Source of the DNA: Escherichia coli
GTDB taxonomy: Bacteria > Pseudomonadota > Gammaproteobacteria > Enterobacterales > Enterobacteriaceae
Direction: 5' to 3' (one strand)
DNA length: 64,000 nt
Assembly: GCF_013315695.1 (NCBI RefSeq)
Contig: NZ_CP054353.1
Position numbers and translations under genes: made by a program. Under the pieces are notes generated by a model. That model did no database searches. It had not been told where the DNA came from and worked only from the letters and a program-made list of their open reading frames with translations. Position 1 is the stretch's first letter. Every line of letters starts with the position of its first letter. Below are positions 13,674-44,840 of the stretch, one piece after another.

Positions 13674-15674
13674 TCATCCTTGTTGCTGAAGCATGGGGAA
13701 TAATTGTTCGCAAAGCAAAACACCGTTATTCATTGCTTCTACCCGTGCCTCGCTTTCTGTATTACGAAATTGTCCCAACACATGTGCCAGCCGATAAAAA
13801 CCCACCGCGGTGAGGTCATTCGCCAGCAACTCTGCCTGACCAATAGCACTCTGTTCCTGATAGCGCCAGCCGTTATGGAGCAGTTGAATAAGTAACGCCT
13901 GGCAGCGCATCAGCAACTGATGAGCGGTAGACGGCACAGGCAGAACGCTGGCAGAAGGTAGCGGTGCCACAGGCGCAGTTTCTGCGTCCAGCGCCCAGGC
14001 GCGGGTTTTTGTCATCATCACCCGTGGTTCCAGTGTCAATTGCCCCTCTACAAAACTGACAAAGCCAGAAACCAGGCTCACGGGGTTGTCTGTTTGTTGC
14101 AAAAGCGCCGCCATGCGTTCAACGGCAAAAGGAGAACAGGCAGATGCCGGAAGGGATAACGTCAGCACATTATCTTCCCCTTCGCCACTGATTACCTGCG
14201 CATCCAGTGTCTGGCGGCTGCTATCCCAACCGAGCGAAATACACTCCGCTACCGGCAGAATAAATAAGTTATCGACCTGGTTGAGTGGTCGTATGCAGGC
14301 GGGGGGACGCTGGCGTAAATATTCCCGCAAAGCCACAATGCCCGGCTGGCGCAACGGCGCGCTCAACATTTGCCAGGCGTCTGGCGACAGTGGAACAACA
14401 CTACTCAAGCGGTTACGGGTCGCTAACAGCAGCTCGCCATCGGCACTGCGTTTTGCTGCTTGTGAAACAATTTGCCCACCAGCCAGTGCGCCAGCCTGAA
14501 AACTAAATAGCCGACGTTTTGTCGCGGGAGCGTTTTCTTGTTCGCTTCTCGGCCAACTACGCGAAAGGTGCAAAATACTGCCGGTGTCGGGATCGGTGAA
14601 CCAGATGCGTAAACCATACTGCTCAATATCCTGCCAGCAACGCATACCTAAAGACACCAGCCGCAGATGATCAAGCTTTGCTTCTCCGGCAATGCCAGAG
14701 CCAACGACCGTGCGCCACGGCACAGGAGGAACTTCACCAACACTGTCGCGCCGCGCCATCTCTTGTGCGCAATTTAATCGACTGTTTAATGCCGCAAGCT
14801 GACGTAAGCATTCTCCGGCATGGTAGTGGCTGGCGCGGGCGTGGAAGGCATCAACGCTGGCGCGCAATTGCCGTAGCGATTCACTCACCCATCGCCAGTT
14901 GCAGCGTTCCGCCGCTTGCTGCGCGCGGCTGAAAGCGGCCTCGTAATGAATAAGCGGCTGGCTGATGCCGCTCAGCCATAATGCCTGGCTTAGTTGCTGA
15001 ACATATTGACGACACGCGTTGCCCTCTTCGCTGGCAAACGGATCGTCAGATGATGTGACGTGTTCGCTGCGCATCTGCCAGATTAAATGGTTAAATTCTG
15101 CTTGCTGCGCTTTGGCCTGGACAAAGGCCTGTACTGCCAGCACAACATGTTCGCAAAGTGTTCCTTCAATACAATCACAGCGTGCGAAACGAATGCTGCT
15201 GCGGGAATAAAAACGTACATCGCTCATCGGTAAGCGGGCAGAGGGAATTTCGCCCGGCGTACAGAACAACTCAATGGTGATGCCTTTAGCGACCAGCGCC
15301 TGCGCGCGTTTGCGGGTGGCATCGGGAAGGGTAGCCAGTTCTTCTAGCCAGATTGCCGGATCCCACTCTTCTTCTTTTTCCGTAGGCTGGGTGGTGGCGC
15401 AAAGTCGCTGATAACTTAAAACCAGCATCACGCGATGGCGGCACATGCCGCTGGCCCCGCAGCTGCATTGAGCCTCTTTCAGTGCCTGACCGTTCGCCAG
15501 CTGGGTACGGACACCGTCACTGAAGGTGGCGATTAAAGCGCCGTTCTTATGGCTGATTTCCGGGACGTTGCCATTTTCCAGTTCCTTAAGACTGCGTTTA
15601 ACAAAACCGGCATTGCTTAACGCCGTCAGGGCCTGCGGCGTCAGTTCTAATAATTCCGGACGTAGTGAATTCAT
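13674..15674 (-). CDS. yehQ: YehQ, SWIM zinc-finger domain protein
   Basis: 666-aa ORF; Cys/His SWIM-like motif near the N-terminus; gene order. Confidence 0.75.
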   Translation of the reverse strand: MNSLRPELLELTPQALTALSNAGFVKRSLKELENGNVPEISHKNGALIATFSDGVRTQLANGQALKEAQCSCGASGMCRHRVMLVLSYQRLCATTQPTEKEEEWDPAIWLEELATLPDATRKRAQALVAKGITIELFCTPGEIPSARLPMSDVRFYSRSSIRFARCDCIEGTLCEHVVLAVQAFVQAKAQQAEFNHLIWQMRSEHVTSSDDPFASEEGNACRQYVQQLSQALWLSGISQPLIHYEAAFSRAQQAAERCNWRWVSESLRQLRASVDAFHARASHYHAGECLRQLAALNSRLNCAQEMARRDSVGEVPPVPWRTVVGSGIAGEAKLDHLRLVSLGMRCWQDIEQYGLRIWFTDPDTGSILHLSRSWPRSEQENAPATKRRLFSFQAGALAGGQIVSQAAKRSADGELLLATRNRLSSVVPLSPDAWQMLSAPLRQPGIVALREYLRQRPPACIRPLNQVDNLFILPVAECISLGWDSSRQTLDAQVISGEGEDNVLTLSLPASACSPFAVERMAALLQQTDNPVSLVSGFVSFVEGQLTLEPRVMMTKTRAWALDAETAPVAPLPSASVLPVPSTAHQLLMRCQALLIQLLHNGWRYQEQSAIGQAELLANDLTAVGFYRLAHVLGQFRNTESEARVEAMNNGVLLCEQLFPMLQQQG

Positions 15675-16737
15675 GACTGAAGATTCTCCGCAAGCCAGGC
15701 CGCCAGCTCGCCCGGTGTCATGGCGGCTATTTGTGCGCCGACATTAACTAGCGCCTGGGCCGTATCGTGGTCATAGCAAGGTGTTGCGGTGCTATCGAGC
15801 GCCGCCAGTCCCAGCACTTTGATGCCGCTCTGGACACACTTTTTCACCTGATGCGTCAGTAATGATGATGAACCCCCTTCGTAAAAATCGCTCACGAGGA
15901 TAATGACGCTTTTCGCTGGTTGTTCAATAAGTTGCCGACCATATTCCATGGCACTGGCGATATTGGTTCCGCCGCCTAATTGCACTTTCATTAATAACTC
16001 TACCGGATCGGCAACGTCTGCCGTGAGATCAACCACGCTGGTGTCAAACGCCACCAGATGGGTACGAATACCGGGTAACTGCCATAAACAGGCCGCCATC
16101 ACCGCTGAGTGGATCACCGAGTCCACCATTGATCCGCTTTGATCAACCAGTAAGACCAGTTGCCATTGTTCGCTTTGGCGTTTAATGCGGCTGTTAAAGC
16201 GGGGGGATTCGATATACAACTTGCCGTGTTGCGGGTGCCAGTGTTGCAGGTTGGCGCGCAGAGTACTTTTGAAATCAAAGTTTCGCGCCAGTGGAATAAA
16301 TGAGCGGCGACGGCGATCGCGGACACCAGAAAAAGCCTGACGAACTTCCTTTGCCAGTCGCGCCATAATTTCTTCCACAACCTGGCGTACTTTTCCGAAG
16401 GCTGCATACGTTCCAGCACGTCGAGATTTGTCACCACATCTTCAATGCCGTAGCGCAGTACGGCATCGCTTTCCAGCCGTTCAATCACCTGTTGCGGAAA
16501 CAGCGTGTGAATACTGTTGATCCACTCAGGGGTGGTGAGATTTGAGCCACCTAATCCACCGGAGCGTTCACCACGCTGGAGCCGTTCAGGATCGCGCCCG
16601 TACAGCCACTCCAGCGCGTGGTCTATCTGCCGGGCGTTGTCATCCAGCCCACAAAGCGTCGTTTCTGCCGCTTCGCCAAGAATTAATCGCCAGCGTTGTA
16701 GCTCACGGGTGGTCAGAAGATCGTTCAGTTCAGACAT
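15671..16737 (-). pseudogene. yehP: yehP (von Willebrand factor A domain), apparently frameshifted
   Basis: Two overlapping minus-strand ORFs in different frames (16114..16737 N-terminal part; 15671..16378 VWA part with DQSGSM motif); 1067-nt span is not a multiple of 3. Confidence 0.6.
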
Positions 16738-20108: not shown

Positions 20109-20224
20109 ATATTCATCCCTGAAATGTATTAATGAAATAAACGATATTTTACGCGCAATAAATGTTTGGCGCATTAGTTGTTTGAGCGGAAAATATCTGG
20201 AAAGCAGATCACAGTAAATAAAAA

Positions 20225-20250
20225 AACCTGCTGGTGAGGCAGGTTCTTTT
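20225..20250. terminator. Bidirectional hairpin upstream of yehL
   Basis: aacctgc-tggtgag-gcaggtt with T-runs on both sides. Confidence 0.5.
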
Positions 20251-20548
20251 ATTTACTACTTTCAGGCCTAACACCACGGCCTGTGCAACATCGTGTTCCA
20301 ACGAACGAATTATAACCATCGGTGGACCCCGTTGCAATTAAGATAATGAGATTTATAATCCTGACTGTTGGGAGGTTGCGCCGGATCGAACCCATTTCAA
20401 GTCCTGGCTACCGGACGGGTGGTGCCGCAGGTAGTGCCCTGATCCGGAGTGCAACATCGTGGTCCAACATACGTAAACCAGTATCGACAGGCAGGTGATG
20501 CTGCCAACTTACTGATTTAGTGTATGATGGTGTTTTTGAGGTGCTCCA

Positions 20549-20824
20549 GTGGCTTCTGTTTCTATCAGCTGTCCCTCCTGTTCAGCTACTGACGGGGTGG
20601 TGCGTAACGGCAAAAGCACCGCCGGACATCAGCGCTATCTCTGCTCTCACTGCCGTAAAACATGGCAACTGCAGTTCACTTACACCGCTTCTCAACCCGG
20701 TACGCACCAGAAAATCATTGATATGGCCATGAATGGCGTTGGATGCCGGGCAACAGCCCGCATTATGGGCGTTGGCCTCAACACGATTTTACGTCACTTA
20801 AAAAACTCAGGCCGCAGTCGGTAA
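20549..20824 (+). CDS. insA: IS1 InsA
   Basis: 91-aa ORF inside IS1 copy A. Confidence 0.9.
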
Positions 20825-21246
20825 CCTCGCGCATACAGCCGGGCAGTGACGTCATCGTCTGCGCGGAAATGGACGAACAGTGGGGCTATGTCGGGGCTAA
20901 ATCGCGCCAGCGCTGGCTGTTTTACGCGTATGACAGGCTCCGGAAGACGGTTGTTGCGCACGTATTCGGTGAACGCACTATGGCGACGCTGGGGCGTCTT
21001 ATGAGCCTGCTGTCACCCTTTGACGTGGTGATATGGATGACGGATGGCTGGCCGCTGTATGAATCCCGCCTGAAGGGAAAGCTGCACGTAATCAGCAAGC
21101 GATATACGCAGCGAATTGAGCGGCATAACCTGAATCTGAGGCAGCACCTGGCACGGCTGGGACGGAAGTCGCTGTCGTTCTCAAAATCGGTGGAGCTGCA
21201 TGACAAAGTCATCGGGCATTATCTGAACATAAAACACTATCAATAA
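20743..21246 (+). CDS. insB: IS1 InsB (expressed as InsAB' fusion by frameshifting)
   Basis: 167-aa ORF overlapping insA inside IS1 copy A. Confidence 0.9.
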
Positions 21247-21256
21247 GTTGGAGTCA

Positions 21257-21967
21257 TTACCCAGTAGCATATTCCAGACCGCCTTCCTGAATAATCTGAT
21301 CCATAACATCCTCACGCTCTTTATATCTCGTGCAGTGCAGTTCAAGTGCCGCGAGTACAGCCATTACCGGTGATGGTAATTTTGTCGTTTTCGGGCTGTT
21401 AATCAGATCGATCGCCTGAGCGATGAAGTTTTGCCACTCTAAAGTACAGGCGCTGAAGTCAAATGTAGCTGTTTTGTTATCCCGTTGCGACACGCCACAG
21501 GCTAAGCGACGTAACTGGGTTAATTTATCTACAGGTGTAACAGGATCTCCGGGAAAGCGGCGATGGCTTAAGGTGGTGGGTACGACTTCAAGCGGAAAAA
21601 CGACAGCAATATCTTTTGCCAGCCACGGTAAAATAACGTCTGTATTTTTGTCAGCCACGTAGATTTCTGGTGTAACTGAGGGCTGTTCCTGAATGATGGT
21701 AGAAAAGTCAGATAATTCGAGAGTTTTCGTTACCGTTCGAGTATGTTTCGATGTAGCATTCTCCGCTTGTTCCACATACCCCTTTTTCGTTTTCTCCGCA
21801 ATCAGCTTGAGTTCCGCTTTTTCCGCCGCCGCAGCATCTGCAAAGCTTTTTACCTGACTTTGCCCGTTGGTGCCGACTTTGCCCCAACTGATATTCAGTT
21901 CGTTTCCCTGCTGCTCCACCGCCCAGAATTTATGTGATTTTTCGTCCTGATAAATATAGGTTTTCAT
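21257..21967 (-). pseudogene. yehI: yehI-like WGR-domain protein, N-terminal 235 codons only, truncated by IS1 copy A
   Basis: ORF begins MKTYIYQDEKSHKFWAV (WGR) and its stop codon lies inside the IS1 terminus. Confidence 0.65.
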
Positions 21968-23658
21968 TGCAAAGTCCTTTTAATCAAAAAGTGATTCGAT
22001 GTCGTTAATGAGTTCGCTGGCGGTGATGTCGTCGAGCATGGAAAAAGTAAGTAAAGGTTGTTTACCGTAGCGATCATCTGGCGAGGTGATTTTTACGCTT
22101 TCAACAGGTAACAGGTCGCCATAACCTGTTTCGCCGTAAATTAATGAAAAATGTTCTGTTTCAAGTTCGAGATCGCCATAAGGGGTAGATTTGCGCATCG
22201 CATAGACGCTGCCGCTTTCTTCCAGGCGTTGCCAGCCTCGGCGCACTAGCCCGACAATGCGCCCTGCCTGGCAAAGACGTCCGCTCCAGCGTGTCAGTTC
22301 ATGAGTATTCTGTTCATTATCAGCAAGACGATAACTACCACGATCGAGCTGTTGGAAGGGGGGAAGCAGTTCGTAATCAGCGTAAATTTGCCTGAATGCA
22401 GCGGCAGATTCAGGGGGGATTTCCAGCATATGCGGAATACCGATGTTTCCTGCTGGTAGCGTGAATAGCTCATCCTGCATATCGCTGTAAGTGCTGTCTT
22501 CTGCGACCCGGAAGCAGGCAATCAGCGTGTTTTCCTCAGTATATACCCCCCATAACAGTCGTCGGGTTAAGTGACGTACCAGTGGGTGCTCCACCATGAA
22601 CAGGCGGAACTGCTCTGTTGTCCAGCGTCTGCGCTGGCACATAGCCTGTTCCAGACGATCAATCTGCTGGCTGGCTATGGCGCGTACATCTTTTTTCAAC
22701 TGTTTGAAGAGGTTAACGGCGTCAGTTGCCAGTGTTTTATCATCGCTCTGGTTTGGTTTGGGTAAGTCTTTCAGGACTTTGCCGTTTGCGTCACGAACCA
22801 TGGGTTTTAAGGTTTCGTCAAAACCAACGGTGAATTGACGTGGGCCGAAATCAAGTGTCAGCGAGCCGTTGATATCAAGCCCCAAATCTGGAGCCAGACG
22901 GTCTTCCAGTTCAGCCATTGTCAGTCCGCGATTTTTGGCGACCATATTGATTTTGTCGCTCGCATGTTCCTGCAATGCGGCGAATTTAATTTTTTGCGCA
23001 ATGCCATTAAGCAACATTAGCGCAATGTCGCTACCGATACTGGCTAACACATCCAGCCCGTAAACCGCGCGTTTATGCTGGGATTCACCCGGCCAGGCGC
23101 GGATAAGCGGGGTTAATTTACGCGCGGTGTCGTCATCGCCTAAAATTCCCAGCGAGGTAAATGCCCAGTTTTCTTTTGCGGGAGCGCCAGCTTCTGTCCA
23201 GGCGGTATACAGATCCCAGCCAAAGTCAGCCAGGGAATCGCGGGTGAAGGTGTCTTTGATGATCTCCAGCCCAGCGTAGGCGGTAATGTCGCGTGAAAAG
23301 CTCAACATAGTGCCGAGGTGGCGCATAGCGTCATCTGGCAGAGGCAGGTTGTTACTTTTAAGCCGTGGTCTGCGCCATAAGGTGAACTGATAAAAGCCGG
23401 GCAGTGGGGCGATTTTTGCGGGATGATCCTCAAGCGGATCGCTATCAAATAATGTTGCCAGCGCTGCTAAAATATCAGGTTGATTATATCCTTGGGCGAT
23501 TTCCTCAATCGTTTCTCGCTGGTTTAATTTCACTAGCAGGAGGAGTGCCTGGCGGGCATATTCCCGATTTTGGCACGGTTTGCCCAGCGCCAAAGGCAGT
23601 AGCCCGGCGGCGGCATGGCGCGGGTTATTTGCCAGCCAATTAACGGCATCCTTGTAAG

Positions 23659-25084
23659 TAATGCCAGTCAGTTAAGCAACTGACTGGCTCTTTTTCGGGG
23701 CTGTGGGGTATTTCCAGGGCCTCTCCTTTACCACTCTCGGGAAGGCCCTTTCCCTTCTTGTCGGTAATTTCACAAGTTGTCCCATACTTGCAAGATCGCG
23801 CATCAGCTCCGGTATACGTCCCGGTGAAGCGCCCTGCAATGTCATCAGCATTCTCATCACCATTCCGCATGATTCTGAGAAACTCAGTTGATTCGGCCAG
23901 TAACCTTTCAGATGTTCCGCCATTTTAATCATCTGATATCTCACCAGATTATAAGCCAGTAAGACACCCCACAGCTCTTGCTCCACAAGCTCCGGTTTTT
24001 TACTTCTCAGCGTCAGCCTGCTCAGTTGCATCGTCTGTTTTATCTCCCTGTATCCCAGTTCGATTTCCCAGCGATGACTGTACAGATCCGCCATTTCTCC
24101 TCCGGGGAAGCGCATGGCGTCCGTCATCGACGTCAGCAGATGGCAGACTTTTCCTTTGCGCGTCACGGTCAGCAGGCGGGCTGTCACTTCATTTCCCAGT
24201 CCCGGCCACTTTTTTCGTGCCTGCGGGCTGGTTTTCAGCTTCACCAGATGATCGCCTTTACCCAGTTTTCTGATCTCTTCATATTGCGCTCCCTTTCTGA
24301 GAGGTATCATCCAGTGGCGGTGTTCTCCCGCCAGGCTCCAGGCATTTAACAGTCCCAGTGAGTAATAACCTTTATCCATTAACGTCAGAGTGTTATCGCC
24401 GGTTTGTTCTATAAGTTGCTCAGCAAGCTCATTTTCGCTGTTCTTCATCGTGCCGAAGGCTGCAGCCGTCAGCAGATGGCTGGTCAGTTCCATCTGGCAG
24501 ACCATTTTGACCTGCGGGTAGAGCGCCGGGTTCCCGGCATGTGTCTGGCGGGGGAAGGCTGCATCGTTCTCTGGTGTATCCGGTGTGCGCCAGAACACAC
24601 CATCGATGGCCAGCAGGGTCAGGCCGCACCAGTGCGGATGCGGCGTGGCGTTATGCCAGAGCTGCGCTGTTTTCGTGAACACGCGGCGGACAGCCTCACT
24701 TCCCAGGCGCTGGCGGGCCTGAATAACGGCACTGGGGGCAACGAAGGGGCGATTGCCCGGCAGCATGATGTCCAGGCGATTCACAATCTGGTGAAGAGGT
24801 TCTTTACGCTCAAGCGCCATGCCAACAATACACCAGACCATCATTTCGAGGGGAAGACGGCGCTTGCGTAGCGTTACAGTACCTGATTCGGCAAGGCAAC
24901 GAGAGATGAGTTCGGGGTCGAGGTAATCCCCCAGAGAAGTCAGTGGGTTACGCAGAGAATCGTAACGGGATACCAGATCAAGAGCCTGTCCAATGTGCAT
25001 AAAAAAATCCGGAAACAAGTGAGCGTTTCCGGATTCTTACACAGCCACTGGATCGGTCAACTGATCCTTAACTGATCGGCATTA
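23659..25084 (-). mobile_element. IS4 (1426 bp) with 12-bp target-site duplication catccttgtaag
   Basis: Termini taatgccagtcagttaag … cttaactgatcggcatta; identical 12-mers at 23647-23658 and 25085-25096. Confidence 0.9.
23672..25000 (-). CDS. insG: IS4 transposase (DDE family)
   Basis: ORF 23672..25018; likely start at [10 protein letters not shown]. Confidence 0.85.
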
Positions 25085-27322
25085 CATCCTTGTAAGCCAT
25101 TTTTTTCTGTAACCGCTGCGCCATTGGTAAGGCTAGTTCACTGGCCCCAATAAAGAGGGTGAATATCCACAGTCGTTGATGATCTCGTTGCAAGCAGGTC
25201 ATAAACGAAGGAATGGCCGTACTGCCAAAAATCCCCAGAATCTCTTTCTCACCTGAATATTGCTCCTCAATGATTATTTGGTTGAGAAATGAAATCGCCT
25301 GTTGTCCCGGTAAGTAACAAAGTGCAGATAGATTCCAGCTCTTGTTGGCATTGTTGTGATATTTCGCAAACTCAGCTTTTAGTGTTGGAAAATCAAAGCG
25401 CAACAAGGCATCAACAGCGCTTTGCGGTATATATTTTTTTTCATGCAAGTCATCCTCGCAATGCCGCCATTCATTAAAACCTAATTGCCAAAGGATTTGT
25501 TGTTCTGGTGTAAAAGGAATGAAAGATGTCTCCCAACTTTCTTTTTCAATTAGTGGCAGATCGGTAAATAAGGTTTGCTGTGATGCCTGATATTGCGCGA
25601 TTTCACTGAATCTGGATATGTCAGTATGACTGATTAACTCTGTAATTCCAGGTGTGATATCCGTCACGGCTGGAACAGGAAGCACAGGTAAATCAAATAC
25701 GGGTATTACATTTTTCTTCTTATTTATTACCCACGGTGGAGCGACAAATAGCTGCGGTAGCATATCCGCAGTAGCGTATTCATATTCTTCAGCGACTGAC
25801 TGAGGACGACATTCAGATAAGATGCCTGCCGCCTTAGCATTAACCCAGGGAATGACGTCGCATACTAACTCTGGCGTGATGGTAATCAATTTGACAAGCG
25901 CTTTATGCCACTCTTTATCTTCATGTATTGCCAGCAAAGTTGCATAAGCGGCAATAGCCGCAGCGGGATGTTTTTGACAGGCTTTGCTTAAGTATTCCAG
26001 GTGCTTTTTCTTGCCAATTACACCGAGGATCAGAATTTGAATCGCATCCGGGTGATTCGTTTTCCATAACCATTTGACAAGATCTTCAGTCTCGCTGATG
26101 CGCTCGAAGAGATAAGTGGGATTGTCAGAATGCTCTTCCACAAACTCAGTAAGTATCCGGCTTACACCGCTCACCCCATTATTTGCCAGCAACATTGCCA
26201 GATAAGCGCGAAAATCACGATATAACGGTGGGAAGTCGTATTTTTCTGCTGCAGTCAGAGCGGCATCATCGGTTACTACCAGTCTTAACCAGGTCATCGC
26301 CGGAACGTTTTGGTCTGCGTAACGTAGAGCCATAGCATTGGCAATATCCGGGCGTTCAGGGAGCAGTAACGCCGCAAAAGGTTGCCGTGCTGGGGATAGC
26401 GTCGGAATAGCAGTAAGCACTTTATTCACACAGCGTTGCCACTCATCTTCTGAAGCGAGTGAAAGATGATGACATAGACGTTGATGCCAACTCGGTAGCG
26501 ATTCTGCTTTGTGACCAGGTGGAATGATGGTGGTGACTGCGCCTTTTACTGGTTTATATTTGAGTTGAAGAGCAAAAAGGGCGATTTCAACGGCACTTTC
26601 CAGACCACAGCGAATGACTAAGTCATCGACCAGTTCATCTGCAGAGTAAGAGTTCCAAAAACTCCAGAGCAATGCCGCATCAGATTGCGCACTCCCTGTT
26701 TGTTGATTGTCCAGAATTCGACTTTGTAACTCGGCAAACGCTTGCTGCCAGTTTTCAGGATAAGAGCGGTAATTATTGTCGGGGTCATATGCCCTGGTGT
26801 TATTCGCAATGCGCTGCCATATTTGACCATCTTTGTGCAGATAATTGATCTCTCTGGGGCGAGAGCGATGTGGAAAAGCAAATCGATTAATATCGTCAGT
26901 GACAGGAATGACTGCATCATCAGCCAGCCATGGGTGTTTATTTTGACTCACAGGGGGAGTTTTAACTTCAGGAGTGGCTTTGGTGACTGGAGGGAGATAT
27001 ACGTTTGCCGAATTGCCTTCCACATACCCCTTTTTCGTTTTCTCCGCAATCAGCTTCAGCTCCGCTTTTTCCGCCGCCGCAGCATCCGCAAAACTTTTTA
27101 CCTGGTTTTGCCCTTTGGTGCCAACTTTTCCCCAACAGATATGCAACTCGTTTCCCTGCTGCTCCACCGCCCAGAATTTATGTGATTTTTCGTCCTGATA
27201 GATAAAGTGTTTCATTCTGCATTCCTGTAATTTTATCCAGTTGAATGCTGATGCTACCAGTATTTATGCGGGTTAGAGAGAGACAAAATCGCAAGAAAAC
27301 AACTTTAGGAATTTATAAAGAA

Positions 27323-27346
27323 AAGGCGCTGTCGATGCAGCGCCTT
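27323..27346. terminator. Bidirectional hairpin between metG end and molR start
   Basis: aaggcgctg-tcgatg-cagcgcctt with T-run on the minus strand. Confidence 0.55.
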
Positions 27347-27355
27347 GAAGGGGGA

Positions 27356-29389: not shown

Positions 29390-29520
29390 AGTAGGCATTA
29401 CTTCTTAATAGTGAAAAGGGGTTAGATAGTACCAAATGGGAAAATGTTAAGTAAGTACTTCTCTATATTCTTCAGGTAAACTATCAGCTGATGGTTTATC
29501 TATACAAAAAAGGAGTCGGG

Positions 29521-30630
29521 ATGAACGAACAATCCCAGGCCAAATCACCAGAAGCCTTGCGCGCAATGGTCGCCGGGACACTGGCCAATTTTCAGCACCC
29601 AACCCTGAAGCATAACCTCACCACGCTGAAAGCGTTGCACCATGTCGCCTGGATGGACGACACGTTGCATGTGGAACTGGTTATGCCATTCGTCTGGCAT
29701 AGCGCGTTCGAAGAGTTAAAAGAGCAATGTAGCGCCGAACTGCTGCGTATCACCGGGGCGAAAGCTATCGACTGGAAACTGTCGCACAATATCGCCACCT
29801 TAAAACGCGTGAAGAATCAGCCGGGAATTAACGGCGTGAAGAACATCATTGCGGTCAGCTCCGGTAAAGGCGGCGTGGGTAAATCCTCCACGGCGGTAAA
29901 CCTGGCGCTGGCACTGGCGGCGGAAGGGGCGAAAGTCGGCATTCTGGACGCCGATATCTACGGCCCATCAATCCCCACCATGCTGGGCGCAGAAAATCAG
30001 CGTCCAACTTCGCCGGACGGTACCCACATGGCACCGATTATGTCTCATGGCCTTGCAACCAATTCAATTGGTTATCTGGTCACTGACGACAATGCGATGG
30101 TGTGGCGTGGTCCGATGGCGAGCAAGGCGTTAATGCAAATGTTGCAGGAAACCTTGTGGCCGGATCTCGACTATCTGGTGCTTGATATGCCGCCAGGCAC
30201 CGGTGACATTCAATTGACACTGGCACAAAACATTCCAGTAACTGGCGCGGTAGTGGTCACCACCCCGCAGGACATTGCGTTGATCGATGCGAAAAAAGGC
30301 ATTGTGATGTTCGAGAAAGTCGAGGTTCCGGTGCTCGGTATTGTCGAGAACATGAGTGTGCATATTTGCAGTAACTGTGGTCACCATGAACCGATTTTCG
30401 GTACCGGTGGTGCAGAGAAACTGGCCGAGAAATACCACACGCAGTTGCTGGGGCAGATGCCGTTACACATCTCCTTACGTGAAGATCTCGATAAAGGCAC
30501 GCCAACGGTTATCAGCCGTCCGGAGAGCGAATTTACCGCTATCTACCGCCAGCTGGCTGACCGCGTTGCAGCCCAGCTTTATTGGCAGGGAGAAGTCATT
30601 CCTGGCGAGATTTCCTTCCGCGCGGTCTAA
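29521..30630 (+). CDS. apbC: Fe-S cluster carrier ATPase ApbC (Mrp)
   Basis: ORF 29491..30630; start MNEQSQAKSP; P-loop GKGGVGKS; CxxC motif. Confidence 0.9.
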   Translation: MNEQSQAKSPEALRAMVAGTLANFQHPTLKHNLTTLKALHHVAWMDDTLHVELVMPFVWHSAFEELKEQCSAELLRITGAKAIDWKLSHNIATLKRVKNQPGINGVKNIIAVSSGKGGVGKSSTAVNLALALAAEGAKVGILDADIYGPSIPTMLGAENQRPTSPDGTHMAPIMSHGLATNSIGYLVTDDNAMVWRGPMASKALMQMLQETLWPDLDYLVLDMPPGTGDIQLTLAQNIPVTGAVVVTTPQDIALIDAKKGIVMFEKVEVPVLGIVENMSVHICSNCGHHEPIFGTGGAEKLAEKYHTQLLGQMPLHISLREDLDKGTPTVISRPESEFTAIYRQLADRVAAQLYWQGEVIPGEISFRAV

Positions 30631-31148: not shown

Positions 31149-31203
31149 GGTGATGCTGCCAACTTACTGATTTAGTGTATGATGGTGTTTTTGAGGTGCT
31201 CCA

Positions 31204-31479
31204 GTGGCTTCTGTTTCTATCAGCTGTCCCTCCTGTTCAGCTACTGACGGGGTGGTGCGTAACGGCAAAAGCACCGCCGGACATCAGCGCTATCTCTGCT
31301 CTCACTGCCGTAAAACATGGCAACTGCAGTTCACTTACACCGCTTCTCAACCCGGTACGCACCAGAAAATCATTGATATGGCCATGAATGGCGTTGGATG
31401 CCGGGCAACAGCCCGCATTATGGGCGTTGGCCTCAACACGATTTTACGTCACTTAAAAAACTCAGGCCGCAGTCGGTAA
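31204..31479 (+). CDS. insA: IS1 InsA
   Basis: Identical to the other copies. Confidence 0.9.
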
Positions 31480-31901
31480 CCTCGCGCATACAGCCGGGCA
31501 GTGACGTCATCGTCTGCGCGGAAATGGACGAACAGTGGGGCTATGTCGGGGCTAAATCGCGCCAGCGCTGGCTGTTTTACGCGTATGACAGGCTCCGGAA
31601 GACGGTTGTTGCGCACGTATTCGGTGAACGCACTATGGCGACGCTGGGGCGTCTTATGAGCCTGCTGTCACCCTTTGACGTGGTGATATGGATGACGGAT
31701 GGCTGGCCGCTGTATGAATCCCGCCTGAAGGGAAAGCTGCACGTAATCAGCAAGCGATATACGCAGCGAATTGAGCGGCATAACCTGAATCTGAGGCAGC
31801 ACCTGGCACGGCTGGGACGGAAGTCGCTGTCGTTCTCAAAATCGGTGGAGCTGCATGACAAAGTCATCGGGCATTATCTGAACATAAAACACTATCAATA
31901 A
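31398..31901 (+). CDS. insB: IS1 InsB
   Basis: Identical to the other copies. Confidence 0.9.
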
Positions 31902-31967
31902 GTTGGAGTCATTACCTAAATAGGCTTGATGAAAGTTCTATTTCTATATTTTTCAATATACAAATTT

Positions 31968-31995
31968 CCCCAAAAACGGCGTGAATATCACGCCG
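31968..31995 (-). terminator. Intrinsic terminator for the 94-aa ORF
   Basis: cggcgtg-atat-cacgccg hairpin followed on the minus strand by ttttt. Confidence 0.55.
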
Positions 31996-32000
31996 ATCAA

Positions 32001-32285
32001 TCATACTTCAGAACACATACTCAATGTGTAAACAGCCATCTCTCCATCGGGATTAGAAGGGCGTAATACAAATATCGGTATACTGCCATTGTCAATGTAT
32101 GTGGCTGCAACCCCTCCGTCAGGTGTAGCATACAAATCAAGTCCTTCACAAAACTCTTTTGCCGTAACCTTTTTAAGATGGTCAGCATATTTGATCATCT
32201 GGAGGTGCATTTCCATCGTTTGGCTATTTCGTGGTGCGCTGCTAATGGCTTGCTTAATGTTCTCGTAGATCTGGGTTTCTGTCAT
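32001..32285 (-). CDS. Hypothetical 94-aa protein of unknown function (orphan gene divergent from thiM)
   Basis: Clean ORF (MTETQIYENIKQ…) with its own terminator and an AT-rich upstream region carrying a perfect palindrome; I do not recognise the family. Confidence 0.5.
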   Translation of the reverse strand: MTETQIYENIKQAISSAPRNSQTMEMHLQMIKYADHLKKVTAKEFCEGLDLYATPDGGVAATYIDNGSIPIFVLRPSNPDGEMAVYTLSMCSEV

Positions 32286-32316
32286 TGTTTATCCCACCTA
32301 TCAAATTTAGAAAAAT

Positions 32317-32338
32317 AATATTAATTAGCTAATTAATA
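32317..32338. promoter_or_regulatory. 22-bp perfect palindrome atattaattagctaattaatat, candidate operator
   Basis: Perfect dyad symmetry read directly; lies about 32 bp upstream of the 94-aa ORF start. Confidence 0.4.
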
Positions 32339-32494
32339 TAATCAATGGTTTTCACCATCTGAATGATAGTCGCTAATTGTTTCTTTTTCATTCCTTCTAT
32401 GGGGTACAAAATGGGGTACACAGAGAAGAAGCAATTAATGGAGGCGAGCTTGCATCTGCAAGCCACTTCCCCTAAGCTGGCACAAAATATAGAG

Positions 32495-32631
32495 ATTCAA
32501 CCAAACGACTCGGGGTGCCCTTCTGCGTGAAGGCTGAGAAATACCCGTATCACCTGATCTGGATAATGCCAGCGTAGGGAAGTCACGGACCACCAGGTCA
32601 TTGCTTCTTCACGTTATGGCAGGAGCAAACT
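32495..32631 (+). promoter_or_regulatory. TPP (THI-box) riboswitch in the thiM leader
   Basis: Contains ggggtgcccttctgcgtgaaggctgagaaatacccgtatcacctgatctggataatgccagcgtagggaa, the classic thiM THI-box, directly upstream of the thiM start. Confidence 0.85.
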
Positions 32632-39112: not shown

Positions 39113-39170
39113 CTTTTAATTCCTTCATGACAGGTAATGTAAGGTACGCGATGACGGTAATGACTCCAAC

Positions 39171-39674
39171 TTATTGATAGTGTTTTATGTTCAGATAATG
39201 CCCGATGACTTTGTCATGCAGCTCCACCGATTTTGAGAACGACAGCGACTTCCGTCCCAGCCGTGCCAGGTGCTGCCTCAGATTCAGGTTATGCCGCTCA
39301 ATTCGCTGCGTATATCGCTTGCTGATTACGTGCAGCTTTCCCTTCAGGCGGGATTCATACAGCGGCCAGCCATCCGTCATCCATATCACCACGTCAAAGG
39401 GTGACAGCAGGCTCATAAGACGCCCCAGCGTCGCCATAGTGCGTTCACCGAATACGTGCGCAACAACCGTCTTCCGGAGCCTGTCATACGCGTAAAACAG
39501 CCAGCGCTGGCGCGATTTAGCCCCGACATAGCCCCACTGTTCGTCCATTTCCGCGCAGACGATGACGTCACTGCCCGGCTGTATGCGCGAGGTTACCGAC
39601 TGCGGCCTGAGTTTTTTAAGTGACGTAAAATCGTGTTGAGGCCAACGCCCATAATGCGGGCTGTTGCCCGGCAT
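39171..39674 (-). CDS. insB: IS1 InsB
   Basis: Identical to the other copies. Confidence 0.9.
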
Positions 39675-39868
39675 CCAACGCCATTCATGGCCATATCAAT
39701 GATTTTCTGGTGCGTACCGGGTTGAGAAGCGGTGTAAGTGAACTGCAGTTGCCATGTTTTACGGCAGTGAGAGCAGAGATAGCGCTGATGTCCGGCGGTG
39801 CTTTTGCCGTTACGCACCACCCCGTCAGTAGCTGAACAGGAGGGACAGCTGATAGAAACAGAAGCCAC
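39593..39868 (-). CDS. insA: IS1 InsA
   Basis: Identical to the other copies. Confidence 0.9.
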
Positions 39869-40145
39869 TGGAGCACCTCAAAAACACCATCATACACTAA
39901 ATCAGTAAGTTGGCAGCATCACCCGCGATGACAATACCACTTAATAATACCTTTTAAATACCTTTGCGGTGAAAACTTGACCGCTGTAACATTTTTTCTG
40001 ATGAATCGAGCCAACAGAAAACGCTGAAAAAACATCCAAAAGATGGAAAAACTCGCCCGTAACGACCAGGATTATGATTGCCCGCAAAAGGCGGGCCAGG
40101 ACAATCCATAGCCGATATCCAATCGGAATTTACGGGAGCATAGTA

Positions 40146-43571: not shown

Positions 43572-43854
43572 GGACGGTATATGACTAACCTGTTTGTTCG
43601 TAGCGGAATTTCTTTTGTCGATCGTAGCGAAGTTTTAGCCCATATCGGTAATGAGATGCTCGCGAAAGGTGTGGTTCATGATACCTGGCCACAGGCATTA
43701 ATTGCCAGAGAAGCAGAATTCCCTACCGGGATAATGCTTGAGCAGCACGCCATTGCAATACCGCATTGTGAGGCGATTCATGCTAAGTCGTCAGCCATTG
43801 GTGATGCTGCCAACTTACTGATTTAGTGTATGATGGTGTTTTTGAGGTGCTCCA

Positions 43855-44130
43855 GTGGCTTCTGTTTCTATCAGCTGTCCCTCCTGTTCAGCTACTGACG
43901 GGGTGGTGCGTAACGGCAAAAGCACCGCCGGACATCAGCGCTATCTCTGCTCTCACTGCCGTAAAACATGGCAACTGCAGTTCACTTACACCGCTTCTCA
44001 ACCCGGTACGCACCAGAAAATCATTGATATGGCCATGAATGGCGTTGGATGCCGGGCAACAGCCCGCATTATGGGCGTTGGCCTCAACACGATTTTACGT
44101 CACTTAAAAAACTCAGGCCGCAGTCGGTAA
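43855..44130 (+). CDS. insA: IS1 InsA
   Basis: Identical to the other copies. Confidence 0.9.
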
Positions 44131-44552
44131 CCTCGCGCATACAGCCGGGCAGTGACGTCATCGTCTGCGCGGAAATGGACGAACAGTGGGGCTATGTCGG
44201 GGCTAAATCGCGCCAGCGCTGGCTGTTTTACGCGTATGACAGGCTCCGGAAGACGGTTGTTGCGCACGTATTCGGTGAACGCACTATGGCGACGCTGGGG
44301 CGTCTTATGAGCCTGCTGTCACCCTTTGACGTGGTGATATGGATGACGGATGGCTGGCCGCTGTATGAATCCCGCCTGAAGGGAAAGCTGCACGTAATCA
44401 GCAAGCGATATACGCAGCGAATTGAGCGGCATAACCTGAATCTGAGGCAGCACCTGGCACGGCTGGGACGGAAGTCGCTGTCGTTCTCAAAATCGGTGGA
44501 GCTGCATGACAAAGTCATCGGGCATTATCTGAACATAAAACACTATCAATAA
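44049..44552 (+). CDS. insB: IS1 InsB
   Basis: Identical to the other copies. Confidence 0.9.
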
Positions 44553-44840
44553 GTTGGAGTCATTACCTCAGCCATTTATCTGTTAAGGCCAACAAATAAA
44601 GTTCATTTTCAGCAAGCGGATGATGATAACGACGTGGCGGTATCGTTGGTTATTGCGTTGATTGTGGAAAATCCGCAGCAGCAATTGAAACTTTTACGCT
44701 GTTTATTTGGCAAGTTACAACAGCCCGATATCGTCGAGACACTAATTACTCTTCCTGAAACTCAGTTAAAGGAATACTTCACAAAGTATGTTTTAGATTC
44801 AGACGAATAAATCCCTCTGTAACAATAAAAAGGACTGTTT

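Follow-up and report, generated by a model that had tools for sequence, protein, structure and literature searches.

In Escherichia coli K-12, the gene known as molR is composed of yehF and the pseudogene yehH (b2115/b4499), and the metG-yehF promoter is activated by BglJ-RcsB (PMC3950696). Almost nothing was found in the functional literature on DUF4132, yehLMPQ, or bacterial WGR domains. In sublineage L1a of ST131, the transposon TnMB1860, which carries blaCTX-M-15, is inserted in the metG/DUF4132/yeh region (PMC9334617); its insertion in a successful clinical lineage shows that the genes at this locus are dispensable. Here, we analyzed this locus in a 64,000-nt stretch of E. coli DNA (the window, i.e., the whole stretch at its full length), whose lineage has MSB1_4I, AF3, and AF10, all bloodstream isolates, as close relatives. 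Its present state is very probably best explained by an IS4 insertion that split the metG-proximal gene, later IS1 deletions, and recombination between repeats shared by paralogues.

Results

Downstream of metG, some 30% of E. coli genomes have a tandem array of three paralogues, A, B, and yehI; in these three-gene strains, yehK, the zorO/orzO module, and yehLMPQ come next. We refer to the IS4-split WGR/DUF4132 gene adjoining metG as gene A and to the next WGR/DUF4132 paralogue downstream as gene B. In both products, a long variable body separates a WGR domain at the N-terminus from a DUF4132 domain at the C-terminus, and the two share 43% amino acid identity. In the window, yehI and yehK have been deleted, and gene B is a stump of its first 706 nt (235 codons; 21,262–21,967, minus strand) that is cut by IS1. 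A previous interpretation of this DNA, made from its letters and open reading frames (the sequence-only reading), labelled the split gene molR-like and the downstream gene yehI-like; neither label held. The metG-A intergenic region (27,216–27,355, minus strand) is homologous to the K-12 metG-yehF ("molR") promoter region, and a K-12 match of 96.7% runs contiguously across apbC, metG, the intergenic region, and the WGR segment. Within gene A itself, only this 197-nt WGR segment (91%) and a paralogous stretch of ~70% identity match K-12 nucleotides. Gene A, which is absent from K-12, thus lacks full-length nucleotide collinearity with yehF/yehH and is a paralogue of molR, not its orthologue. It is gene B that is the true molR (yehF/yehH) orthologue: full-length B alleles show 92–93.5% nucleotide identity to the K-12 gene (93.5% in the full-length comparison of yehF/yehH with B), and the stump is, over its 706 nt, 99.9% identical to B of strain N32 and 83.6% identical to K-12 yehF. 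YehI, a 1210-aa DUF4132 protein with MDKELPWLAD at its start, is a paralogue of A and B in the body and DUF4132 domain (31–39% amino acid identity), but its N-terminus corresponds to residue ~95–100 of A and B. Since YehI lacks a WGR domain, it cannot be the partner in the 5' repeat described below. The gene B stump begins with a WGR domain (MKTYIYQDEKSHKFW...) and aligns to YehI only from its residue 110 (37%). These assignments correct the annotated orthology, in that K-12 molR differs from the metG-proximal gene of three-gene strains.

The element that splits gene A is 1426 bp long (23,659–25,084, minus strand), with its transposase co-oriented with gene A. Its ends, TAATGCCAGTCAGTTAAG and TAATGCCGATCAGTTAAG, form 18-bp terminal inverted repeats that match at 16 of 18 positions. 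The transposase ORF (23,672–25,018, minus strand) is intact, with 448 codons from a TTG start, and its product scores 304 bits against NCBIfam NF033592 (cut-off 115) and matches the Pfam families Nterm_IS4 (E=8e-33) and DDE_Tnp_1 (E=1e-31). The 12-bp target-site duplication, CATCCTTGTAAG, is perfect in its left (23,647–23,658) and right (25,085–25,096) copies, and the position and duplication that the sequence-only reading gave for IS4 were exact. The element has 0 mismatches relative to the AF10 copy and to a copy at a different locus in USVAST219, and is 99.0–99.7% identical to many copies annotated as IS4/insG. With all four features of IS4 membership present, it is an ordinary, already-annotated IS4.

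The insertion leaves an N-terminal fragment of gene A (25,085–27,215, minus strand; codons 1–710, including the right duplication copy), delimited by the ORF list, in silico excision, and Pfam, and a C-terminal fragment (21,980–23,658, minus strand) that carries the DUF4132 domain. Removal of IS4 together with one duplication copy restored an uninterrupted 1265-codon ORF that runs from 27,215 to 21,980 on the minus strand, as had been proposed for an in-frame join without a stop. The restored product could be aligned along its entire length with four intact alleles (1265–1268 aa, 87–94% identity), and no extra stop or frameshift was found in the alignment with these four alleles; excision followed by comparison with intact homologues thus bore out the proposed split. 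Pfam assigned a WGR domain (PF05406, E=2.5e-17) to residues 7–69 and a DUF4132 domain (PF13569, E=8.5e-47) to residues 999–1169, and the WGR segment matches PDB entry 2ra8; on these matches, restored A is a member of the WGR + DUF4132 ("MolR-like") family. The dN/dS ratio of A is 0.17–0.27 overall and 0.06–0.41 in 150-codon windows, compared with 0.01–0.04 for metG; these values rule out positive or diversifying selection on A and indicate selection that is relaxed relative to metG, yet purifying. In codons 451–750, dS exceeds 1 between the A alleles of the window and L008. Gene A is also strongly mosaic, with frequent recombination: the alleles of the window and N32 are identical in a central ~2 kb plus IS4 and differ by 6–17% in their outer parts.

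Among 5426 complete E. coli genomes, IS4 occupies this site of gene A in six, and the site is empty in 1611. IAI39 has such an empty site, with a single copy of the 12-mer CATCCTTGTAAG, and the flanks in the window differ from this uninterrupted allele by 0–2 mismatches per 200 nt over 22,620–23,658 and 25,085–25,800. Because so few genomes are occupied, the insertion is young; the equality of its flanks to the uninterrupted allele and the lack of further lesions in either half of A in the window also argue for a recent event. At least five closely related genomes have the insertion in common, and AF10 has already gained an additional frameshift in the 3' fragment of A. The earlier claim of recency is thus upheld by the perfect duplication, the restored frame, the near-identical flanks, and the six occupied genomes, but in a relative sense only, since several genomes share the insertion; in these relative terms, the IS4 insertion is evolutionarily young and clean.

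One occupied genome narrows this claim further: in CFSAN061770, IS4 occupies the same site in an A allele that is 8% diverged, and one recent event therefore cannot account for all occurrences. It is possible, though unlikely, that every occupied site traces back to one IS4 insertion that was spread among A alleles by homologous recombination, with no independent hit in CFSAN061770. The mosaic structure of gene A, with the central ~2 kb and IS4 shared by the window and N32, is compatible with such a spread, and CFSAN061770 is identical to the window between nt −110 and +47 relative to the position of the insertion. Beyond this stretch of ~160 bp, however, the CFSAN061770 flanks are 2–12% diverged from the window and near (about 1%) to the uninterrupted L007 allele. 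Moreover, its IS4 is of a different haplotype (four linked SNPs) that is identical to the ynbB/ynbC copy of UPEC132, whereas the window haplotype is that of the USVAST219 copy at another locus. IS4 also has a clear target-sequence preference, a further point against a single insertion. In our own comparison of five other IS4 sites, on which this pattern rests, we found 12–13-bp duplications in a shared context of an A-rich stretch followed by a T-run, for example, cagccttgagctg between aaaacgg and ccgttttttt. The gene A target (~45 bp, ccaattaacggcatccttgtaagccattttttt) fits this preference: A-rich, about 18–20 bp, and then a T-run. The presence of two IS4 haplotypes at the same 12-bp target in diverged alleles is a clean natural example of strong IS4 target selectivity.

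The 5' ends of genes A and B encode the WGR domain (codons 1–66; 27,018–27,215 in A and 21,770–21,967 in B, both minus strand) and form direct repeats of 198 coding nt, or 199 nt when a single upstream base is counted, with about 91% identity (17–18 mismatches, 60 of 66 residues). The sequence-only reading had described near-identical repeats of ~220 bp at 21,743–21,967 and 26,990–27,215, with the first 65 residues nearly identical. Direct repeats and a shared WGR start are indeed present, but they are shorter and less alike than that: the homology between A and B stops abruptly after codon 66, and the 27 nt that the sequence-only reading added at the gene-distal side show no homology. Between A and B, the proportion of synonymous differences is 0.26 in codons 1–66 and 0.63–0.96 in all other 100-codon bins. 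In a table of variable sites, the window A allele has B-type bases at nt 168, 171, 186, and 189 of the repeat. Within-genome A-B distances of the repeat are not consistently below between-genome distances, indicating that gene conversion is episodic; we thus rejected continuous concerted evolution of the WGR repeat, and it is only the sharing of tracts that supports conversion.

K-12 yehF is A-type through nt ~165 of the repeat and B-type from nt 168, and no A body is present at the locus; the K-12 gene is therefore a chimera with an A-type 5' end and a B body, which switches between nt 165 and 168. An A-less metG-B junction as in K-12 was found in 3658 of the 5426 genomes (67%), and in A-bearing genomes the partial matches to this junction break off exactly where the repeat ends (query position 537). 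The suggestion that the repeats could drive deletion or gene conversion is borne out by the K-12 chimera, the 3658 A-less genomes, the B-type tract in the window A allele, and the low synonymous divergence of the repeat; the 5' repeats do serve as natural substrates of recombination. Most likely, K-12 has lost gene A across the repeat, the direction (deletion, not gain) resting on parsimony in an unrooted comparison. The opposite direction, in which the two-gene form of K-12 is ancestral, a minority of strains acquired A between metG and B, and the repeats mark this gain, is improbable in our judgment. The two-gene form is the majority form, and the very divergent segments of A (dS above 1 between the window and L008, codons 451–750) could be imports. 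However, the switch from A-type to B-type in K-12 yehF is expected from a crossover between A and B and not from an untouched B; synonymous sites between A and B have reached saturation, which makes the duplication ancient; and A is found in diverse backgrounds, where it is under purifying selection (dN/dS 0.17–0.27).

The similarity of the repeats could have another origin, namely, purifying selection only, whether for the WGR domain or for a signal at the nucleotide level, for example, a translation-initiation structure. Among the protein segments, WGR is conserved best (91% amino acid identity, dN 0.045), but synonymous sites are conserved in the repeat as well (pS 0.26), whereas those of the DUF4132 region, which shows 70–76% amino acid identity between A and B, are saturated (pS 0.68–0.77). 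Furthermore, the shared tracts switch between A-type and B-type, the K-12 chimera shows real exchange inside the repeat, and the repeat has no Rfam match; we consider selection as the sole cause very unlikely. A structured RNA in the repeat was also rejected, as the only Rfam families found within 19–33 kb were OrzO and a TPP riboswitch, neither of which matches the repeat.

IS1, a 768-bp element with 23-bp terminal repeats, insA/insB, and a 9-bp target duplication, classically makes adjacent deletions, and a missing 9-bp duplication is expected afterwards. The window contains four IS1 copies, all of 768 bp, identical, and with canonical ends; 9-bp duplications are present at the copies at 39,156 and 43,800 and absent at those at 20,494 and 31,149. 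The latter two, copy a (20,494–21,261, plus strand) and copy b (31,149–31,916, plus strand), have the same orientation, and each abuts a deletion as mapped against AF10: copy a, a 7.29-kb deletion of zorO, yehK, yehI, and the 3' 3.08 kb of B; copy b, one of yehD-yehA and rcnBAR. The same IS4-split A is found in AF10, with three mismatches and a 2-nt indel over 9.9 kb, but AF10 has no IS1, and its B, yehI, and yeh fimbrial operon are intact; N32 is similar. The IS4 insertion thus predates both IS1 events, given that AF10 has the split gene without IS1. No cross-matching 9-bp duplications were found among the four flanks of copies a and b, so a composite transposon or a reciprocal rearrangement was rejected; separate adjacent deletions explain the two copies better. 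As direct repeats, the two copies flank a segment of 9.9 kb with the essential gene metG inside, and a deletion of this segment between them should be lethal. The sequence-only reading overlooked the IS1 truncation of gene B, the two IS1 copies, and the adjacent deletions. These two copies, with the deletions next to them, have a greater influence on the form of the locus than IS4. Both elements are abundant in this lineage (15–20 matching places per genome), but the idea that assembly misplaced an IS4 copy into this repeat-containing region, for which nothing specific speaks, has a negligible probability, as the junctions and the duplication are identical in six independently assembled complete genomes and the duplication and frame restoration are exact.

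Discussion

These comparisons point to a stepwise history. Very probably, IS4 transposed into codon ~707 of gene A, where a 12-bp staggered cut by its DDE transposase gave rise to the CATCCTTGTAAG duplication; the insertion truncates A and probably has a polar effect on B and yehI as well. Two later IS1 events then removed most of B and all of yehI, yehK, and zorO and, on the other side, yehD-yehA/rcnBAR. This course, with IS4 first and IS1-adjacent deletions later, shows how IS elements have eroded an accessory locus step by step in a clinical lineage. Unequal recombination across the repeats, presumably dependent on recA, most likely gave rise to the arrangement with a chimeric "molR" (yehF/yehH) and no A that K-12 shares with about two-thirds of E. 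coli genomes, and inter-paralogue recombination and gene conversion keep the 5' repeats far more alike in nucleotides than the rest of the genes.

A search of A, B, YehI, and YehK/L/M/P/Q against the defence-system profiles of PADLOC-DB v2 returned no match except a marginal WGR-only one (E=0.006), and a known anti-phage defence system was rejected on this basis. The yehLMPQ products are a MoxR-type AAA+ ATPase, a DUF5682 protein, a vWA protein, and a SWIM protein. As a speculation to which we give little credence, the WGR/DUF4132 array and yehLMPQ could form a modular system, for example, one for nucleic-acid sensing or conflict, with the WGR 5' module as a recombination anchor for swapping, gaining, or dropping highly divergent sensor bodies. 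The allele classes with dS above 1, the homology breaks at the repeat end, and the two-gene/three-gene polymorphism fit this picture. Inactivating lesions at the locus include IS4, IS1, and frameshifts in yehP, yehK, K-12 yehH, and B of IAI39. If the modular reading were true, such frequent inactivation would mean selection against the system in some niches.

Compared with the known systems, the K-12 IS4 (insG; IS4 family, IS4 subgroup) and the window element are alike in length, ends, ORF, and duplication, and the window copy differs only in where it lies, namely, in the metG-proximal WGR/DUF4132 gene at codon ~707. Copies a and b of IS1 resemble the classical IS1 adjacent deletion, as each lacks the 9-bp duplication and borders a multi-kb deletion when compared with a nearly identical sister genome. 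In the TnMB1860 case, the same locus was hit by a mobile element in a successful clinical lineage, but that element is a resistance transposon and the lineage is a different one. K-12 "molR" and gene A are alike in their WGR + DUF4132 architecture, size (about 1,265 aa), position directly downstream of metG, and upstream promoter region; however, the body of K-12 "molR" is orthologous to gene B, unlike that of the IS4-split gene A, and yehF was inactivated by a 1-nt frameshift whereas gene A was inactivated by an IS. All observations fit the already known biology of IS4, IS1, and paralogue recombination, and the current understanding of IS elements and paralogue recombination is unchanged by these results.

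An IS4 insertion splits a molR paralogue that K-12 lacks

Read along the locus, where the relevant genes are on the minus strand, apbC (29491-30630, plus strand) and metG (29398-27356, minus strand) are followed by gene A, which starts at 27215 and is split by a 1426-bp element with exact ends at 23659-25084. This element is IS4: its ends form an 18-bp inverted repeat (16/18 matches), and its sole ORF (23672-25018) is uninterrupted, scores 304 bits against the NCBIfam IS4 transposase model (cut-off 115), and contains the Pfam domains Nterm_IS4 and DDE_Tnp_1. Other strains carry identical IS4 copies at unrelated loci, and many copies annotated as IS4/insG match the element at 99.0-99.7% identity. 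The perfect 12-bp direct repeat CATCCTTGTAAG is present on both sides (23647-23658 and 25085-25096), confirming the element and duplication described in the sequence-only reading. In IAI39, the site is empty with one copy of CATCCTTGTAAG, and the window differs from it by 0-2 mismatches per 200 nt for ~0.7-1 kb on either side of IS4. RefSeq records of sister genomes already annotate both IS4 and the pseudogene fragments.

In silico removal of IS4 and one duplication copy, the check suggested in the sequence-only reading, gave a single 1265-codon ORF (27215 to 21980) with a WGR domain (residues 7-69) and DUF4132 (residues 999-1169), bearing out the in-frame join proposed earlier. Restored A aligned end to end with the intact alleles of IAI39 (1268 aa, 93.8%), 2013C-4282 (92.9%), C1 (90.4%), and 4/1-1 (87.1%), and no further stop or frameshift was found against these four uninterrupted alleles.

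In many strains, metG is followed by three paralogues in tandem: A (1265-1268 aa), B (1253-1264 aa), and yehI (1210 aa). A and B share 43% identity, and the alignment of YehI to them begins only at residue ~95-100. In K-12, the former molR, made up of yehF and the yehH pseudogene, shows collinearity with B (92-93.5% nucleotide identity, one frameshift), and the body of A is absent from the K-12 locus; thus, the IS4-split gene is not molR, after which it had been named, but a paralogue that K-12 lacks. The second repeat-bearing gene had been called yehI-like; however, YehI is without a WGR domain, and the gene is identified by its collinearity as B, the true molR orthologue. Only the first 706 nt of B are left in the window (21262-21967), running into the IS1 at 20494-21261 (IS1-a), a truncation overlooked earlier.

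In strains retaining A, the gene is under purifying selection (dN/dS 0.17-0.27), with constraint relaxed by comparison with metG (0.01-0.04). The A alleles (L002 and L004-L008, including C1 as L007 and 4/1-1 as L008, compared with window 21980-27215) form a patchwork of blocks only 0-1% diverged interspersed with others diverged by 10-35%, and dS between the window and 4/1-1 reaches 1.1-1.6 in codons 451-750. In B alleles, nucleotide homology breaks off exactly where the WGR repeat ends. These patterns suggest old allele classes shuffled by recombination.

Recombination between the WGR-coding repeats

The 5' starts of A and B (27018-27215 and 21770-21967) are direct repeats of 198 coding nt that encode the WGR domain. 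The repeats reported earlier therefore exist, but rather than ~220 bp and near-identical they are 198 bp with 17-18 mismatches (about 91% identity; 60/66 residues match), and the similarity ends abruptly past codon 66. At synonymous sites, the proportion of differences between A and B is 0.26 across codons 1-66 versus 0.63-0.96 in all remaining 100-codon bins, those of the DUF4132 region (70-76% protein identity) among them, so protein constraint alone does not account for the repeat similarity.

A variable-site table of the repeats revealed mosaic tracts. At nt 168, 171, 186, and 189, the bases of the window A allele are of the B type, unlike those of most other A alleles, which are A-type; in K-12 yehF, A-type sequence extends to nt ~165 and B-type sequence begins at nt 168. 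Of 5,426 genomes, 3,658 gave full coverage of a query across the K-12 metG-to-yehF junction; where A is present (about 1,638 genomes), the match ends at query position 537, the repeat end. The simplest reading is that an unequal crossover inside the WGR repeat deleted the body of A and produced the K-12-type arrangement; that A was instead gained, rather than lost from K-12-type genomes, would be less parsimonious. The yehF switch, the 3,658 genomes, and the B-type bases in the window A uphold the earlier suggestion that the repeats could drive deletion or gene conversion. An equivalent crossover in the window would delete 5,248 bp, all pseudogene material.

Frequency of the insertion and order of events

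Among 5,426 complete E. coli genomes, a 2.4-kb occupied-site query (IS4 with 500 bp on either side) was fully covered in only six (MSB1_4I, AF3, AF10, OZ546925, N32, and CFSAN061770), versus 1,611 for the corresponding empty-site query. The IS4 query matched 15-20 places in occupied-site genomes versus a median of 2 per genome, i.e., IS4 has expanded in the window's lineage.

In CFSAN061770, IS4 occupies the same site as in the window and is flanked by the same duplication. Its A protein is only 91.6% identical to that of the window, its flanks have diverged from the window past ~110 nt to one side of the insertion and 47 nt to the other and are close there to the uninterrupted C1 allele, and its IS4 is another haplotype (four linked SNPs), identical to the UPEC132 copy at ynbB/ynbC. 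Five other IS4 sites (L009-L013: bamD, ynbB/C, tam, ydcO, and a glycosidase gene) have duplications of 12-13 bp in a shared context of an A-rich stretch, ~18-20 bp, and a T-run. Given this shared context, separate transposition into a preferred target is the favoured explanation; it seems less likely that recombination brought the insertion to the CFSAN061770 allele. The context also occurs at window 23620-25125 (A-rich stretch, 12-13-bp duplicated core, 2-3 nt, T-run). At IS4 sites the core often begins with CA/C and is rich in CC/TT, and the context is strong: megablast matches ran 8-17 nt past the IS4 ends.

Over 9.9 kb, AF10 is separated from the window by 3 mismatches and a 2-nt indel. 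Because its A is split by the same IS4, with no IS1 nearby and the downstream genes intact, the IS4 insertion came first in this lineage and the IS1 events afterwards. AF10 has an extra frameshift in the 3' fragment of A that is absent from the window.

IS1-adjacent deletions and decay of the yeh neighbourhood

A 24-kb span of the window holds four IS1 copies that are 100% identical: IS1-a, IS1-b (31149-31916), 39156-39923 (minus strand), and 43800-44567. The last two have 9-bp duplications (CGCGATGAC and TCAGCCATT); IS1-a and IS1-b, which are in direct orientation, flank the locus, and bracket the essential metG, have none. Relative to AF10, a 7.29-kb deletion (zorO, yehK, yehI, and 3.08 kb of B) adjoins IS1-a, and yehD-yehA and rcnBAR have been deleted next to IS1-b. 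On the right-hand side of IS1-b, the window keeps 581 nt (31917-32497) that AF10 (L014, 26002) does not have and that match the distal end of an integrase/HNH island (compared with locus L001, 22632-23517), which AF3 carries upstream of thiM with a TPP riboswitch copy on each side. Still present in AF3 and MSB1_4I, yehA', rcnBAR, and the greater part of this island have been lost from the window, which thus represents a further IS1-adjacent deletion step. Beside IS1-a, the OrzO antitoxin sRNA is retained (20220-20295, minus strand; Rfam RF02083, 98.9 bits; compared with L014 1760-1849; PMC2887945) and the ORF of its cognate type I toxin ZorO (MDTLTQKLTVLIAVLELLVALLQLIDLLK in AF10) falls in the deleted segment, so OrzO is an orphan antitoxin RNA in the window.

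The vWA protein gene yehP (15671-16737, minus strand) is a pseudogene of two overlapping ORFs, with 5 nt in place of 75 K-12 nt (net -70 nt); it is also annotated as frameshifted in AF3. For yehQ, 614 aa are annotated in K-12 (L003, 19101-20945) versus a 666-aa ORF in the window (13674-15674) and AF3; the K-12 version may lack its 3' end, or its annotation may differ. In the window's lineage, decay extends across the whole yeh DUF4132/MoxR/vWA/SWIM neighbourhood.

The locus components matched no PADLOC defence model, and the sole literature information found is that a promoter upstream of the locus is activated by BglJ-RcsB (PMC3950696). Apart from the gene names, the repeat length and identity, and the missed IS1 truncation, the sequence-only reading was accurate in essentials and correct in its mechanistic suggestions. 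Damage comparable to that of the yeh neighbourhood here is seen in K-12 (the yehH frameshift), in IAI39 (B frameshifted, with an IS1 at its 3' end), and in ST131 sublineage L1a, which carries a resistance transposon in this region (PMC9334617). Taken together, all of the findings agree with what is well known about how IS4, IS1, and tandem paralogues behave.
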